Shown here piece after piece: positions 1,038-40,847 of a stretch of 41,983 nucleotides of DNA. The stretch lies in contig JACQKR010000046.1 in the NCBI GenBank assembly GCA_016204425.1, positions 1 through 41,983 on the forward strand, given 5' to 3'. Below the pieces are notes generated by a model, which was not told the origin of the DNA, ran no database searches, and saw nothing but the letters and a program-made list of their open reading frames with translations. Position 1 is the first letter of the stretch. Each line of letters begins with the position of its first letter. Source of the DNA: Candidatus Levyibacteriota bacterium. GTDB lineage: Bacteria > Patescibacteriota > Microgenomatia > Levybacterales > UBA12049. A program made the translations under genes and the position numbers.

Positions 1038-1128
1038 GATTTACTTTATATATGCTATAATATTTCGAAGCTGATTCTTGGCTAACAAAACAGTTAAGGG
1101 TTAATTGTTAACTGTGAATTGTTATCTT

Positions 1129-35571: not shown

Positions 35572-36240
35572 TTATCCTTCTGCAATTTCCGGCAGGTTTT
35601 TATACGCGAAGAACTTTGCAAAAATGATACCGAAGACGAAGCCGCCGATATGTGCGAAAAACGCAATACCACCTGTCTCACCGGAGAAGGGCAGAGACGC
35701 CGCGCCGGATATGATTTGCAAGAGAAACCAGTATCCGAGCATAAATGATGCACTAATATTTATGACCGTAAAAAAACCAAATAACGGTACAAGCGTTTTT
35801 ATCTTATGGTGTGGGAAGAGCATATAGTACGCACCCAAAACTCCGGCTACTGCCCCTGAGGCGCCGAGCATCGGAATATCGGAATTGGGCATGAAGAAAT
35901 ACTGTGTCAATGCGCCAACGATTCCGGAGCCAAGGTAAAGAATCGGATAGAGCAAGAGGTGCATGTAGCCTTCGACGTTGTCTCCAAAAACCCAGAGAAA
36001 CAACATGTTTGAGATGATATGAAGGAAGCCTCCATGAAGAAATATTGCGGTAATAAAAGGAATAAGTGTTAGCCAATTACTGAAATCGATCTCAGACGGG
36101 ATAAGTGCCCACCGGTAAACAAACGCTTCAGGATCTGGTGTGACATACTGCTGAAAGAACACGTATACTGTGATACCAATAAGCAATATATTAATAAACG
36201 GAAATCTTTGCGATTTTACTGAATCGGAAAGAGGTATCAT
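35572..36240 (-). CDS. Rhomboid family intramembrane serine protease
   Basis: HGGFLHIISNMLFLWVFGDNVE and the GASGAVAGVLGAY (GxSG) motifs, six TM helices. The ATG at 36240 is preferred over the ORF-track 36339. Confidence 0.85.
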   Translation of the reverse strand: MIPLSDSVKSQRFPFINILLIGITVYVFFQQYVTPDPEAFVYRWALIPSEIDFSNWLTLIPFITAIFLHGGFLHIISNMLFLWVFGDNVEGYMHLLLYPILYLGSGIVGALTQYFFMPNSDIPMLGASGAVAGVLGAYYMLFPHHKIKTLVPLFGFFTVINISASFMLGYWFLLQIISGAASLPFSGETGGIAFFAHIGGFVFGIIFAKFFAYKNLPEIAEG

Positions 36241-36304
36241 TAAGACTATTATAAAAAGTAAATGTAAAAATAGTGTAATAATTGTTGAGTTTGCATTGGC
36301 ATTT

Positions 36305-36333
36305 TTGCACTCGATTGATAATATTGGTAAAAT
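36305..36333 (+). promoter_or_regulatory. Sigma70-like promoter TTGCAC-17-TAAAAT for tRNA-Arg(UCU)
   Basis: TTGCAC at 36305-36310, 17-nt spacer, TAAAAT at 36328-36333. The tRNA starts at 36350. Confidence 0.5.
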
Positions 36334-36349
36334 ACACACAGTTGCTTAT

Positions 36350-36422
36350 GCCCCTGTAGCTTAACGGATAGAGCGAGTGCGTTCTAAGCACCAGGTTGGG
36401 GGTTCGATTCCCTCCAGGGGTA
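36350..36422 (+). tRNA. tRNA-Arg (anticodon UCU)
   Basis: GCCCCTG TA GCTT AACGGATA GAGC G AGTGC GTTCTAA GCACC AGGTT GGGGG TTCGATT CCCTC CAGGGGT A. G1-U72 wobble and an A-C mismatch at the top of the anticodon stem. Confidence 0.85.
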
Positions 36423-36498
36423 CCGCGCACCATTCGGTACACGGCTTCGCCACTAAATAGGAAAGTCGTGATTTACAGTAATCTCTCGAAATATAGTT

Positions 36499-36825
36499 GT
36501 GCGCGTGGGATGCACCGACTGGTGCGTCCCATTCCTTACATCTAAGATTTTTTATTATGTCTACGTACTCCACAATTCCCCAAAAAATTTTCTATATGTT
36601 GGTTATTCTGGAGATTTGAAGCAAAGGCTTACTTCGCATAATAACGGTGAGAATAAATCAACAAAAGCATTTGTACCACTTGAACTAATTCACTATGAAG
36701 CATATAGAAATAAAAAAGACGCTAAACGGAGAGAAACTTATCTAAAAACTACAAAAGGAAGAACCACATTACGATCAATGCTTAAAGAATACTTATCAGA
36801 TACGAAAAACCCAAAAAACTTGTGA
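36499..36825 (+). CDS. Small stand-alone GIY-YIG nuclease domain protein (copy 1), immediately 3' of tRNA-Arg
   Basis: YYVYVLHNSPKNFLYVGYSGDLKQRLTSHNNGENKSTKAFVPLELIHYEAYRNKKDAKRRETYLKTTKGR is a complete GIY-YIG core. There is no ATG next to YYVYVL. The only in-frame start is the GTG at 36499, which lies inside a strong hairpin (GGGATGCACC-GACT-GGTGCGTCCC), so the start is uncertain. Confidence 0.8.
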   Translation: MRVGCTDWCVPFLTSKIFYYVYVLHNSPKNFLYVGYSGDLKQRLTSHNNGENKSTKAFVPLELIHYEAYRNKKDAKRRETYLKTTKGRTTLRSMLKEYLSDTKNPKNL

Positions 36826-36875
36826 CTCGAACCTCTCCGGGGCATGCTCTGAGAGATAGCATGGCTATCAAATGT
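36826..36875 (+). repeat. Degenerate tRNA 3'-end echo plus direct-repeat copy A
   Basis: It starts at the GIY-YIG stop codon: TGA-CTCGAACCTCTCCGGGGCA, compared with the tRNA-Arg end TTCGATTCCCTCCAGGGGTA. It continues TGCTCTGAGAGATAGCATGGCTATCAAATGT, and copy B at 37806-37859 shares the blocks CGGGG, GAGAGATAGC and GCTATCAAA. Confidence 0.5.
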
Positions 36876-37389
36876 TTGCTTCATCTAGAATATTTGGTGC
36901 TTGACTCTGACTACTAGACTGTAAGTCAATTGCATTATCTTTCGGCGGTTTGAGAAAGGCATACAAAGGATTATTCTGAACCATTTGCAAGATTTCACCA
37001 GTCGGAATATCAGAATTAAATGCTGCAAGATAAACTACCAGATCATCAAATAGCTTTTGTCTATCAGCAACAACACCCATTGTAATAACGAATAACATCT
37101 CCTTATCTTTTCTATTAAATTCAAATGTGTGGGTCCAAAATCCATCTTCTGGACGACCAACAAGAATCGAGATATTAGGAGATTTTTCTGGGTTCTCGTA
37201 TATATTTTTTCCAGATGAAAGCTCGCCGACTGCTTCATCAAAAGTATCTCTTGGCTTTGTAGGAATTACATCATCACCATCGGGTGATCTAAGTGCTTCT
37301 ACTGTAAATTGCATGCCTTTTGGTACGAGATTATCACCTTGAGTCATAAAGAACCCTTGAGATGCAGCAACAATACCCTCAAGATTCAT
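36868..37389 (-). CDS. Hypothetical acidic protein (second gene of a two-gene cassette)
   Basis: 173-aa ORF with protein-like composition. Its start overlaps the upstream stop (ATGA). No motif recognised. Confidence 0.6.
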   Translation of the reverse strand: MNLEGIVAASQGFFMTQGDNLVPKGMQFTVEALRSPDGDDVIPTKPRDTFDEAVGELSSGKNIYENPEKSPNISILVGRPEDGFWTHTFEFNRKDKEMLFVITMGVVADRQKLFDDLVVYLAAFNSDIPTGEILQMVQNNPLYAFLKPPKDNAIDLQSSSQSQAPNILDEANI

Positions 37390-37646
37390 CTCATCTCCTC
37401 CCTCAATACCTCATTCAATACGTCAATCGAATTGACAACACCTTCATCAATTGACATGGGAATTCTTGCAAATCTTACATTAAGTATTTTTCTAGAGTCT
37501 TTTCCGGTAGAAGTGGCTGTTGCTAATATTCCTTCTATAGAATCAGCTACATCACTCAGTGGCGTTTGTGACAATTCTTTTCCAATGGAGAGCATAAAAC
37601 CATTGCTTATGGGTTCAGGTACCGACATCTCATTTCCTATCGACAT
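37386..37646 (-). CDS. Hypothetical small acidic protein (first gene of a two-gene cassette)
   Basis: 86-aa ORF. The ATG at 37646 lies 6 nt downstream of a TTGAAA-17-TATAAA promoter, so the mRNA looks leaderless. Confidence 0.55.
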   Translation of the reverse strand: MSIGNEMSVPEPISNGFMLSIGKELSQTPLSDVADSIEGILATATSTGKDSRKILNVRFARIPMSIDEGVVNSIDVLNEVLREEMR

Positions 37647-37652
37647 AAAAAC

Positions 37653-37681
37653 TTTATATCACATTTAGACTATCATTTCAA
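37653..37681 (-). promoter_or_regulatory. Sigma70-like promoter TTGAAA-17-TATAAA for the two-gene cassette (leaderless)
   Basis: rc of 37676-37681 is TTGAAA and rc of 37653-37658 is TATAAA, with a 17-nt spacer. The ATG begins 7 nt after the -10. Confidence 0.5.
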
Positions 37682-37805
37682 CTAAAACGTTTAAGACATA
37701 ATATCCAATAAGCTCTTTTAAGAACTCGAACAATCTGGTAAAATAAGTCTAGTTAACAACACGAGTGTACGCACGCATAATTCTATCGATCCAAGCTAGA
37801 AAGTG

Positions 37806-37859
37806 TTCGAATAGAAGTGCATCGGGGGTACTTGGAGAGATAGCGTTGCTATCAAACGT
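37806..37859 (+). repeat. Degenerate tRNA 3'-end echo plus direct-repeat copy B
   Basis: TTCGAATAGAAGTGCATCGGGGGTA followed by CTTGGAGAGATAGCGTTGCTATCAAACGT. The hairpin core is GATAGC-NNN-GCTATC, as in copy A. Confidence 0.45.
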
Positions 37860-37910
37860 ACGAATAGCTCGATATATCGGCTAATCGTATGGTATATAGA
37901 TAATTACATC

Positions 37911-37938
37911 TTGCAATTTATTATCAAATCGTTATAAT
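37911..37938 (+). promoter_or_regulatory. Sigma70-like promoter TTGCAA-16-TATAAT for the toxin-antitoxin operon (leaderless)
   Basis: TTGCAA at 37911-37916, 16-nt spacer, TATAAT at 37933-37938. The ATG at 37947 is 8 nt downstream. Confidence 0.55.
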
Positions 37939-37946
37939 TATAACAT

Positions 37947-38237
37947 ATGCAGAAAACCATTCTTCAAGTTCCATTAAATCAGCAACTCAAAAGCGACGCA
38001 GAGAGAGTAGCCCTATCTCAAGGCTTTTCTTCTCTTCAAGAAGTAGTCAGGGTTTTTTTGACAAAACTCGCGACACAAAAAATTGAAGTGTCATTACAAG
38101 AATCTGTACCCCTCTCTGAAGAGAATGAAATGCGATACCTTCAACTAACGAGAGACTTTCAGAAAGGTAAGAATGTATATTCTGCAAAAAATGCTGACGA
38201 TTTAATAAAACAGCTCAATGAAAGTTCGGTATCATAA
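37947..38237 (+). CDS. Type II antitoxin (RelB/DinJ-like)
   Basis: 96 aa. N-terminal ribbon-helix-helix-like text (ILQVPLNQQLKSDAERVALSQGFSSLQEVVRVFL). It overlaps the toxin gene by 20 nt. Confidence 0.7.
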   Translation: MQKTILQVPLNQQLKSDAERVALSQGFSSLQEVVRVFLTKLATQKIEVSLQESVPLSEENEMRYLQLTRDFQKGKNVYSAKNADDLIKQLNESSVS

Positions 38238-38481
38238 AACGTTTCTTAAGAACTACAAGAAGCGAATTGCCACGAATAAAAGGCTAGAAAGAAAATTTCT
38301 TCAACAACTTGAGCACTTTCTCAAAAATCCAACCAATCCTTCTCTTCGGGATCACAAACTTGTTGGTAAAAAGAGTAGTTACAGAGCGTTCTCTGTCACT
38401 GGAGATATTCGAGTGATTTACAGAACTGTCGAGGGTGAATTGTGGCTTTATGATATTGGCAGCCATAATCAAGTGTATTAA
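38218..38481 (+). CDS. Type II toxin, RelE/YafQ-family mRNA interferase
   Basis: 87 aa with KTFLKNYKK..LRDHKLVGKKSSYRAFSVTGDIRVIY..LYDIGSHNQVY, a typical RelE/StbE/YafQ C-terminal signature. Confidence 0.8.
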   Translation: MKVRYHKTFLKNYKKRIATNKRLERKFLQQLEHFLKNPTNPSLRDHKLVGKKSSYRAFSVTGDIRVIYRTVEGELWLYDIGSHNQVY

Positions 38482-38817
38482 ATCCTACGTACGTTTGGCA
38501 TGATCAATACATGGGATTCGCAGAAGCAGGAGCTGGCAATTGGTCCTTTGTTGGTAATGTCTTTACAAAAATATTTTCTCTTCAATGATCGTTTGCTCTC
38601 TTTAGTTTAGAATGTATTGGATTTTTAATCGGTTTCTTGTTTTCTACAAAGAAAAAATAAGGATTAAACTTTTCTTAATTTATTCTTCCTGGTCAGGTTG
38701 ATATACCATCATCAGCCTGATAAAATGGGCATGAAGCGGTTCAAAATAAGAATCGCCAAATGTAAACATCTCAGCCTCATTGACAAAGCTTCATCGACTT
38801 CGTATAGTAGAGGAGGT

Positions 38818-39819
38818 ATGCTGCACCGATTCTTCTCATATCTTCTCAAAAATCAGGTTGTACTCGTTTTTTTCTTAGTGATCGCGGCGTGGTTTATTTT
38901 TCAAATTCGGGGCATTCTCACCTCAATTTTCATTTCATATATCATCATGGCGGCACTCAATCCGTTTGCGACACAACTTCGAAATAGACGTGTTCCTATG
39001 GTATTGTCTGTTGCTATTCCTTATTTATCAACGATTCTTATTGTCTTTCTCCTCGTTTTTCCGCTTATTCCGTTTATTTTCTCGCAGGTACAATCACTGT
39101 TAACAAGTCTTCCGGTTTTTCTCAATGAGTCGGGAAAAGCATTCGGTTTTAGTATCGATGCCAAACAAATACAGAGCATTGTCGCAAATGAATTGAATAA
39201 CATCGGACGAAATGCGTTTGCTGTTACCAGTGCAGTATTTGGCGGAGTTTTCTCAGTCCTCACGATCCTTATCGTCAGCTTCTATCTCATGCTCTATCAC
39301 GACAAGTTCAAACACCGCGTTGCAGAATTATTTCACAAAGACCTTCATCAAAAGATCTATTCTACATTGACCAGGATAGATTTTAAGCTCGGTGCGTGGT
39401 TACGAGGGCAACTTGTACTAATGGTTTTCATCGGCGTTCTCACCTGGCTTACCCTTACCGCACTTGGCGTCCCCTACGCATTGCCACTTGCGATACTGGC
39501 TGGAATTTTGGAAGTTATACCGACACTTGGACCGACGATTTCGGCAATTCCGGCAGTCATCGTCGCAATAACGATTTCACCATCTCTGGGATTAATTGTC
39601 GCTTTGTCATATTTTGTGATTCAAATGATAGAAAATAATTTCCTCGTGCCAAAGATTATGGAGAAAGCAGTAGGACTTAATCCTGTTTTCGTCATCTTAG
39701 GTGTCATGATAGGAGCAAGTCTTATGGGCATCACAGGTGCATTGTTATCGATTCCATTCTTATCATTTCTGATCGTTCTCTTCAAAAGCATCGCAGACGT
39801 AGAGTCGGAAAAAGTCTAA
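38818..39819 (+). CDS. AI-2E family transporter (PerM/UPF0118)
   Basis: The ATG at 38818 behind AGGAGG is preferred. 7-8 TM helices and LGAWLRGQLVLMVFIGVLTWL..LAILAGILEVIPTLGPTISAIPAVIVA, the family signature. Confidence 0.85.
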   Translation: MLHRFFSYLLKNQVVLVFFLVIAAWFIFQIRGILTSIFISYIIMAALNPFATQLRNRRVPMVLSVAIPYLSTILIVFLLVFPLIPFIFSQVQSLLTSLPVFLNESGKAFGFSIDAKQIQSIVANELNNIGRNAFAVTSAVFGGVFSVLTILIVSFYLMLYHDKFKHRVAELFHKDLHQKIYSTLTRIDFKLGAWLRGQLVLMVFIGVLTWLTLTALGVPYALPLAILAGILEVIPTLGPTISAIPAVIVAITISPSLGLIVALSYFVIQMIENNFLVPKIMEKAVGLNPVFVILGVMIGASLMGITGALLSIPFLSFLIVLFKSIADVESEKV

Positions 39820-40422: not shown

Positions 40423-40684
40423 TCAATATGACCTTAATGTGTTTTTAAATGCAATCTTTATCTGATTCCGCCCAAATCCACTCTTTAGAAATACCTCTCT
40501 CGTTTTTGCATCCTTTTCGTCAACAAAATATTCGTAATGGATTAGTTTCAGTGGTCGACGATGCTTTGTTGAGCTCACATCTCCTCGAGCGTGTTCAGAT
40601 AGTCTTTTTTTTTAGATCTGTTGTAAATCCAGTGTAAAATTTTCCGTCTAATAAACTTATAAGTATATAAACGTAATACTTCAT
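40423..40684 (-). pseudogene. Small GIY-YIG nuclease gene (copy 2), 3' of tRNA-Gly, frameshifted in an A9 run
   Basis: From ATG (rc of 40682-40684): MKYYVYILISLLDGKFYTGFTTDLKKK. After a 1-nt shift in the A9 run (T9 on the plus strand, 40605-40613): RLSEHARGDVSSTKHRRPLKLIHYEYFVDEKDAKTREVFLKSGFGRNQIKIAFKNTLRSY*. The 262-nt span equals 87 codons plus 1 nt. It is not in the ORF track as a single ORF. Confidence 0.7.
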
Positions 40685-40716
40685 CAAAAAGTCGAACTTT
40701 TTCGTTTATATATACA

Positions 40717-40743
40717 GTAAAAGGAAGGCAAGTCTGACTTGCC
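40717..40743 (-). terminator. Intrinsic terminator after tRNA-Gly
   Basis: On the minus strand, GGCAAG-TCAGA-CTTGCC is followed by TTCCTTTTAC. Confidence 0.5.
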
Positions 40744-40776
40744 ACCTCGCTAACTCGTAACCGAGTTAGACTCGGG

Positions 40777-40847
40777 AGCGGGTGAAGGGAATCGAACCCT
40801 CGTATCAACTTTGGAAAAGTTGTGTTCTACCATTGAACTACACCCGC
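40777..40847 (-). tRNA. tRNA-Gly (anticodon UCC)
   Basis: rc reads GCGGGTG TA GTTC AATGGTA GAAC A CAACT TTTCCAA AGTTG ATAC GAGGG TTCGATT CCCTT CACCCGC T. Confidence 0.9.

Follow-up and report, generated by a model that had tools for sequence, protein, structure and literature searches.

Why should two tRNA genes on one bacterial contig each be trailed by a small gene for a GIY-YIG nuclease? The stretch analysed here (the window) is the 41,983-nt contig JACQKR010000046.1 of Candidatus Levyibacteriota bacterium (assembly GCA_016204425.1), listed by us as contig C30 of a 778-kb genome that is 73% complete. A preliminary description of its sequence had placed such genes directly 3′ of tRNA-Arg(UCU) and tRNA-Gly(UCC), called their proteins homologous, and proposed a family of elements, homing-endonuclease-like or integrative, that target tRNA 3′ ends. 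ARAGORN, Rfam and the Pfam model PF01541 bear out both arrangements, with gene and tRNA on the same strand, and the two proteins, at 43% identity, are indeed related. We put the probability at roughly 60% that both genes are copies of small selfish nuclease cassettes which target tRNA ends and are widespread in the ultra-small bacteria of the candidate phyla radiation (CPR). As an account of anatomy and distribution, the reading as a tRNA-end element is well supported. The cassettes apparently have not been described so far, our literature search having found no paper that links GIY-YIG genes with tRNA-end repeats in bacteria or describes these cassettes.

A census of small GIY-YIG domains in 21 Levybacteria genomes, made with a hidden Markov model built here together with ARAGORN, returned 105 copies, 3 to 11 in each genome. 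Fifty-six of them have a tRNA gene within 200 nt, a share that tRNA density alone would put, by our estimate, at roughly 2%, so that the enrichment implied by the earlier proposal is found. These tRNA-linked genes lie at distances of 0 to 177 nt and involve 29 tRNA species; all but one of the 56 are co-oriented with their partner, the tRNA being upstream in 28 cases and downstream in 27, while a single pair is divergent and none is convergent. Proximity and co-orientation together therefore place these genes within tRNA transcription units. One might object that in compact genomes small open reading frames (ORFs) can persist nowhere but in a few tolerant spacers, which lie beside tRNAs by chance, CPR genomes being gene-dense and tRNA flanks being operon boundaries. 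However, some 53% of the copies are tRNA-adjacent as against about 2% of the sequence or about 7 to 17% of the spacers (again our estimates), and an orientation ratio of 55 to 1, a base-exact junction and duplicated tRNA ends tell in the same direction; chance adjacency, to which we give practically no credence, is already contradicted. The adjacency of tRNA and GIY-YIG genes is general and highly non-random. In a tree, the proteins fall into three groups: an Ssn-like clade of 13 copies (support 97), which from its sequence signature may correspond to the Ssn family (CDD cd10448), and of which 12 are not tRNA-linked; a mixed, UPF0213-like group; and the window's group, mostly tRNA-linked, whose subclades tend to one tRNA partner and one geometry.

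Duplicated tRNA ends were sought by comparing the last 25 nt of the tRNA with the 200 nt past the stop codon at loci where the tRNA lies upstream. Perfect or near-perfect copies (echoes) are present at L161 (21/21 positions), L072 and L128 (17/17 each), L193 (17/18) and L177 (13/13), with other clear cases at L197, L099, L158, L163 and L200. The clear echoes lie 1 to 40 nt past the stop codon and reach the final base of the tRNA, and 8 of the 75 loci with an upstream tRNA exceed the 99th percentile of 5096 controls in which tRNA and locus were mismatched. A cassette with an echo has a copy of the tRNA end on either side, and the tRNA itself is left whole. At L161, an apparent further tRNA gene (GGTGGATGTAGCTCAGTGGTAGAGC..., not called as a tRNA here) follows 8 nt past the echo, and genome G016 has a tight cluster of tRNA-Gly(UCC), tRNA-Arg(UCU) and tRNA-His; from this layout and this cluster, the cassette appears wedged into a tRNA gene end within a tRNA cluster.

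Loci with the tRNA downstream show the mirror layout, a copy of tRNA nucleotides 1 to 11-25 standing just upstream of the ORF. The match is 25/25 at L094, 17/17 at L012 and L084 and 16/16 at L036 and L037; L134, L143, L019, L110 and L058 are further examples. The proposal of a family that targets tRNA 3′ ends thus holds in part: the 56 of 105 genes near tRNAs, the bracketing of intact copies by tRNA-end repeats and the invariable 3′ position of the type found at the window's Arg locus all speak for it, but about half of the tRNA-linked Levybacteria copies lie 5′ of the tRNA, between copies of its 5′ end.

In the window, too, a diverged copy of the tRNA end had been noted right behind the Arg-locus gene. 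The string is there, corresponding to the last ∼20 nt of tRNA-Arg from the T loop to the 3′ end (36405-36424), but taken alone it does not rise above chance. It is credible only because the tRNA-Arg(UCU) cassettes L161 and L193 carry a tRNA-end copy at the same offset; offset and ...CTTGTGA stop are common to all three. On this positional homology, we read the string as a probable decayed echo.

Duplication of a tRNA 3′ end from the T loop onward, in direct orientation, is also what classically marks an att site, and the cassettes might accordingly be passive cargo: small circles inserted at tRNA att sites by a trans-acting recombinase (Xer-type, or a phage or plasmid integrase), the GIY-YIG gene being merely carried or serving as an addiction or defence gene, as in genomic islands and cis-mobilizable elements. 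Such an origin would suit the stacked units behind the window's tRNA-Arg, each followed by a tRNA-end-like string, and the other small inserts that lie between tRNA and echo in relatives (L135, L143, L182, L183). It sits badly with the fact that nuclease and leader are the sole constant parts. No integrase lies in or near any cassette, a one-ORF unit, and the only PF00589 gene of the source genome, its single tyrosine recombinase, is on another contig (C27:3480-4010; serine recombinases lay outside the search); the label "integrative", if it implies an integrase, is hence an unlikely one. Besides, each repeat copies the very tRNA at which it lies, even though one GIY-YIG lineage occupies at least 11 tRNAs, a pattern which an integrase with a fixed attP would not give, and mirror-image cassettes at 5′ ends are not known for integrases. 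Taken together, we consider passive carriage quite unlikely.

The anatomy of a tRNA-end cassette is clearest in the subfamily of the Arg-locus protein (the Arg type), relatives of which were sought in one genome per species; the alignment used for it (A2) is restricted to the subclade, a broader one (A1) being too diverse. The search yielded 259 relatives of 60-84% identity from Levy-, Gottesman-, Woese-, Curtiss-, Yanofsky-, Nealson-, Staskawicz-, Wolfe- and Saccharibacteria, among others. Of about 80 loci, 50 have a tRNA immediately upstream on the same strand, and at none is a tRNA placed otherwise. The tRNAs concerned belong to 11 or more species, namely Trp, Gln (two anticodons), Met, Asn, Arg (two), Glu (two), Asp and Ser. 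The unit is ∼0.4 kb long and consists of a leader of ∼75-120 nt, a GIY-YIG ORF of ∼90 aa and, after the stop codon, a copy of the final 13-21 nt of the tRNA, from the T loop to the 3′ end.

The leader is conserved from the first base past the tRNA onward. An alignment of 31 leaders, with the consensus GGCACCATTCGGCGCCTnGCTTCGCC...AGAATTGTGACGCAGnCAGGTACCGACTGGTACCTG, supports a stem P1 (in the window, 36425-36430 pairs with 36498-36503) that encloses the hairpin P2, followed by the hairpin P3 (GUGGGAUGCACC-GACU-GGUGCGUCCCAU, at about 36505-36532); the 5′ hairpin of the leader and P3 are mutual inverted copies. Over P1 and P3, 86.7% of alignment cells are paired, compared with 27-42% when the partner is slid, 14 of the 19 pairs have changed on both sides, and none of 500 shuffles reached the observed level of covariation. 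P3 pairs better on the sense strand than on the other (96.4% versus 88.8%; 27 G.T cells versus 6 A.C cells); it is therefore as transcript or as sense-strand DNA that the fold matters. The window leader itself folds with a minimum free energy of -42.6 kcal/mol (z -3.6), and Rfam holds no family matching it, either at the gathering threshold or at E values up to 10. A covariance model of the leader, R1, matches 36424-36535 at 51.8 bits (E 3.7e-10) and nowhere else in the source genome.

The last result disposes of the idea that the trailers of tRNA-Lys genes are miniature derivatives of the element. The 9-mer said to be common to the Arg and Lys trailers, GTCTCGAAT, is at chance level as well: it occurs 13 times with at most one mismatch where 10.9 occurrences are expected, and the Arg leader is not among them. 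Somewhat more remains of a ACGAAAAA..TTTTT hairpin reported from the Gly and Lys trailers: it is found at 2 loci against 0.1 expected, but the pattern was chosen post hoc and its position in the trailers differs.

Leaders also occur in other states. They are in tandem at L130, L140, L156, L165, L187 and L200, and stand alone, without an ORF, behind tRNA-Ala (L203, G003:C11:934-1015) and tRNA-Asp (L209, G010:C12) as well as at L205, L214 and L222; one of the solo leaders comes after the orphan 3′ fragment of a tRNA, and another is without any tRNA. At L215 the ORF behind the leader is reduced to a stub. A foreign or orphan tRNA 3′ fragment precedes the leader at L133, L134, L208 and L217, and in the first two the foreign fragment could be a trace of co-conversion. 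At L123 (Levyibacteriota JACPGQ010000065.1, 1330-1500), two extra P3-like hairpins (GGGATGTACCATCTGGTACATCCC) are nested in the P2 loop and in P3, so that the hairpin unit can insert into its own copies; dispersed P3 hairpins number only 2 to 5 in the source genome, with no REP-like expansion. P3-like hairpins (CAGTCAGGTACCGAATGGTACCTGGC) also lie on the opposite strand beside an apparent 16S rRNA gene 5′ end at L210 (G013:C4) and L216 (G003:C35), and from this putative neighbour the hairpin would not be restricted to tRNA flanks.

As for the nuclease, both window copies belong to PF01541, and residues Y7, Y18, G20, R28, H32 and E64 are invariant among 45 sequences. The single Pfam domain spans nearly the whole 93-aa Arg-locus protein, which retains all residues of the catalytic motif. 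AlphaFold2, given 45 homologues, predicts a GIY-YIG fold of three strands plus helices (pLDDT 93.9). In sequence, the nearest solved structures are those of two UPF0213 proteins, 1ZG2 (E 1.7e-7) and 1YWL (E 5e-6); Foldseek places 1ZG2 and the nuclease domain of Slx1 first (TM about 0.5-0.66; for Slx1, TMq 0.55-0.66 and a root-mean-square deviation of 2.2-4 Å), with I-TevI and UvrC lower. Judged by sequence and predicted structure, the Arg-type nuclease belongs to the UPF0213/Slx1 (URI) branch. NCBIfam returned only weak, sub-threshold matches to a group I intron endonuclease model. Annotation routinely gives such ORFs the generic name GIY-YIG nuclease family protein, and those with a frameshift are overlooked.

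The features of the two window loci are collected in the table.

Table. Coordinates of the tRNA-linked GIY-YIG loci in the window
Feature	Coordinates	Strand	Evidence
tRNA-Arg(UCU)	36350..36424	+	ARAGORN; Rfam tRNA, 60 bits
Structured leader of the Arg cassette	36425..36543	+	31-leader alignment, covariance model R1, folding
Arg-cassette ORF for the GIY-YIG nuclease (93 codons and a stop)	36544..36825	+	PF01541, E 5.4e-16
Putative diverged echo of the tRNA-Arg 3′ end (CTCGAACCTCTCCGGGGCA), immediately past the stop codon	36826..36844	+	Sequence; position homology to L161 and L193
36-nt direct repeat, copy one	36840..36875	+	Repeat search; 78% identical to 37824-37859
GIY-YIG ORF of the Gly cassette, with a +1 frameshift in the A9 run 40605-40613	40423..40684	-	PF01541, E 3.1e-15, frames joined
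Leader of the Gly cassette, second leader family	40685..40774	-	Sequence; layout shared with L068, L089, L085 and L104
tRNA-Gly(UCC)	40775..40847	-	ARAGORN; Rfam, 73 bits

At the Arg locus, the longest ORF opens at GTG 36499, up to which a spacer of 76 nt had been counted; this codon falls inside the conserved structured leader. The start inferred from 50 relatives (M[KQ]F[YF]YVY) lies 119 nt past the tRNA, where the window has AAG in place of the ATG of the relatives, so that the start codon is mutated. The protein called its closest relative, that of L123, is 83% identical to it.

At the Gly locus, the leader begins with a CCGAGTCTAACTCGG hairpin at the tRNA end, followed by its partly decayed inverted partner, then by a GGCAAG/CTTGCC hairpin and an A/T hairpin immediately before the ATG. 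The ORF reads MKYYVYIL...DLKKK, and removal of one A from the A9 run restores ...RLSEHARGDVSSTK. Contigs of two public groundwater runs (X1 and X2, from one study and possibly the source samples) span the run without gaps and identically; the frameshift is therefore in the DNA and not an error of this assembly alone. The protein belongs to a subclade different from the Arg type, together with L068, L089, L085 and L104, whose leaders follow the same design (CCGAGTCWAACTCGG-type hairpin at the tRNA end, inverted partner further on, A/T hairpin before the ATG); L104 has a 9/10 echo past its stop codon. The stop codon of the window ORF is 7 nt ahead of the start of a methyltransferase gene, and a comparison with the empty tRNA-Gly-methyltransferase site of genome G011 gave no clear insertion boundaries. 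With one start codon lost and the other gene frameshifted, both window genes are damaged, and from their sequence the two cassettes are degenerate copies, probably in the course of being lost.

The surroundings of tRNA-Arg have been remodelled. Relatives (L032, L033, L041, L045) have a permease gene pointing away from tRNA-Arg(UCU), which is followed by a co-oriented rhomboid gene, whereas in the window (35572-39819) the tRNA is inverted relative to both of these conserved neighbours. The ∼2.3 kb between tRNA and permease hold the GIY-YIG cassette, a two-gene cassette with acidic ORFs and a RelBE pair. The two copies of the 36-nt repeat flank the two-gene cassette, and a tRNA-3′-end-like string, TCGAA..CGGGG(C/T)A, precedes either copy; repeats and strings suggest stepwise insertions behind tRNA-Arg.

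Occupancy of tRNA loci varies among relatives, as an element of this kind had been predicted to show. tRNA-Arg(UCU) is without a GIY-YIG gene in 11 relatives and is occupied downstream in the window and at L123, L161, L173 and L193, while G018 and G020 carry a different GIY-YIG subfamily upstream of it. The Arg-type tree, with 55 tips, requires a minimum of 28 switches of tRNA partner, compared with 36.1 ± 1.8 for shuffled labels; the count is rough, the tree being poorly resolved.

These observations bear on the alternative that the genes are residents of the host genome and encode UPF0213/Slx1-like nucleases for repair or recombination, placed in tRNA operons for constitutive expression, with the repeats as by-products of recombination at tRNA genes. 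The strict co-orientation with tRNAs across tiny spacers would be accounted for, as would the maintenance of some paralogue-tRNA pairs across families, the high conservation of the protein (identities of 60-84% between CPR classes; 24 columns invariant among Arg-type proteins) and the retention of 3 to 11 copies by all 21 genomes. What such a role leaves unexplained is that each lineage is present in a minority of genomes only, that many copies are broken and tRNA partners change frequently, that cassette boundaries are exact at the tRNA end and the echo, and that leaders are tandem and nested, with foreign tRNA 3′ fragments travelling along (L133, L134, L208, L217). We thus regard a resident function as unlikely.

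Several observations nevertheless weigh against selfish tRNA-end cassettes. A recognisable echo is present at only ∼10 of the 75 loci with an upstream tRNA; that of the window, with ∼14 of 20 matches, has a local score of 6, which 247 of 418 window blocks reach and which is thus at chance level, and no recognisable echo follows the window's Gly cassette. About 40% of the GIY-YIG copies have no tRNA nearby. Several lineages keep one tRNA partner (Asn, Ser-UGA, Glu or Ile) across families, a constancy that fits long vertical inheritance, so that mobility may be rare. We found no pair of occupied and empty alleles that are otherwise identical: the contigs of four groundwater runs are all occupied, with no joint that skips the cassette, and the 34-mer expected of an empty L161 site is absent from the metagenome contig collection. 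Finally, GIY-YIG enzymes are hydrolytic nucleases that are not known to transfer strands.

How might a selfish tRNA-end cassette spread? It would be transcribed together with the tRNA and freed by tRNA processing, co-transcription being suggested by spacers of 0-50 nt that leave no space for a promoter of its own. Its nuclease would nick or cut a tRNA gene at two points, one in a loop and one at the end of the gene, probably acting on folded or single-stranded DNA by analogy with Ssn nucleases and Slx1, and repair or fill-in would then duplicate the stretch between the cuts. In this account the cut by the nuclease itself, the origin of the repeats and the action of the leader, as RNA or as DNA, are inferred.

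A bolder and rather doubtful extension holds that leader hairpins and a ∼90-aa GIY-YIG domain constitute a new class of nuclease-only mobile element, which operates by staggered nicking of tRNA genes. The enzyme would recognise the folded single-stranded DNA of a tRNA gene (T or D arm) together with its own hairpins and would nick one strand in the loop and the other at the gene end; filling of the 13-25-nt stagger after the cassette has been joined would give the tRNA-end repeats and leave the tRNA intact. If true, this would be a transposon-like element without transposase, integrase or reverse transcriptase for which any tRNA gene could serve as landing pad. If self-propagating, the cassettes would be among the smallest protein-coding mobile elements known, and a bare GIY-YIG domain plus folded DNA or RNA would suffice to target a cell's most conserved genes.

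The nearest precedent for such an enzyme is SsnA of Neisseria meningitidis: Ssn is a 94-aa single-domain GIY-YIG enzyme that binds a hairpin repeat flanking its own gene and cuts adjacent single-stranded DNA (PMC11893778), a case of site specificity on hairpin-forming single-stranded DNA (Chenal et al. 2025, PMC11893778) and a demonstration that a protein of this size can discriminate by sequence and structure; tRNAs are not mentioned in that paper. Alike are the single domain of ∼90-95 aa without a DNA-binding domain (the window protein has 93 aa) and the position of the gene beside conserved hairpin-forming repeats (SRM and NTS in Ssn), orientation-dependent and with an architecture like that of an insertion sequence. 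In contrast, the window proteins fall outside the Ssn-like clade of the same genomes, which, as described above, is almost never tRNA-linked; and the cassette hairpins differ in sequence and are gathered in one leader, whereas Ssn repeats are dispersed. The SRM pattern HGTCWYN(0-2)YYVSBRHN(0-5)WNVSBRGN(0-2)RNCYNB is matched within 300 nt at none of 85 GIY-YIG loci that are not Ssn-like and twice at L010, a locus of the Ssn-like clade.

Another comparison is with SegB of phage T4, a free-standing GIY-YIG homing endonuclease whose gene lies in a tRNA gene cluster (PMC2330249). SegB and the cassettes have in common a GIY-YIG gene in a spacer among tRNA genes that is optional among relatives, and SegB and the other T-even homing endonucleases are thought to spread by cutting the allele without the gene. 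However, the cassette ORF is a catalytic domain alone (∼90 aa) with no joined DNA-binding domain, while Seg proteins exceed 200 aa and include DNA-binding modules. Furthermore, no duplication of the target results from homing. Cassettes, in contrast, stand between tRNA-end repeats of 13-25 nt, possess a conserved structured leader and reside in a cellular host (CPR bacteria) instead of a phage.

The nearest proteins in both sequence and fold are UPF0213/YhbQ (1ZG2, 1YWL) and the Slx1 domain. Slx1 is a structure-specific nuclease acting on branched or hairpin DNA and has a RING-type zinc-finger domain which the cassette protein lacks. The UPF0213 genes of model bacteria are single-copy and not known to be tRNA-linked, and no description of this family includes multicopy cassettes with leader and echoes. 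Integrative islands at tRNA genes likewise carry the tRNA 3′ end, T loop onward, as a direct repeat, leave the tRNA intact and accrete stepwise behind one tRNA; the cassettes differ in the absence of an integrase, in a size of 0.4 kb instead of kilobases, in the occupation of many tRNA species by one lineage and in the mirror insertions at 5′ ends. With IS200/IS605 and REP/RAYT elements they share a hairpin-centred, strand-specific organization with a minimal single gene and solo hairpin derivatives. Those systems, however, employ HUH transposases, which act through covalent intermediates, and do not duplicate their target, as opposed to a hydrolytic GIY-YIG nuclease and long duplications.

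Cassettes of this kind account for tRNA-end echoes, pseudo-tRNA fragments and breaks in assembly that recur among CPR genomes, and their nucleases are candidates for small, programmable structure- or site-specific enzymes in the manner of Ssn.

Apart from UvrC, the source genome has eight small GIY-YIG loci, four of which adjoin tRNAs (Arg, Gly, Glu on contig C11 and an intron-containing Asn on C16); four copies are defective, and three loci begin less than 1 kb from a contig end. The Glu copy (L119, C11:1-270) is a frameshifted GIY-YIG remnant cut by the contig end, with its stop codon 9 nt before tRNA-Glu(UUC), and orthologous pairs of GIY-YIG gene and downstream tRNA-Glu are present in G015 and G020. 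On C16 (540-1190, L117, outside the window), tRNA-Asn(GUU) has a group I intron in its anticodon loop (RF00028, 80.9 bits), and the GIY-YIG gene upstream of it lies between two pseudo 5′ halves of that tRNA, 5′ echoes that have the palindrome CCGCCAGCTGGCGG in place of the D loop. Copies that are not tRNA-linked (C57:270-660 and C11:27640-27790) have inverted repeats of the CTTCGGCAAGCTCA / TGAGCTTGCCCCGAA type on both sides, and a related sequence, AAGCTTGTCGAAGG, is found inside the C16 group I intron. Ahead of a truncated Ssn-like GIY-YIG fragment (L121, C2:9430-9640) stands a nested hairpin that resembles an SRM, CGTCATTCTGG...CCGGAATC, and behind the fragment come repeats of the TTAATTGTTAATTGTTAACTG type, the same type that precedes tRNA-Lys(UUU) in the window (1100-1128).

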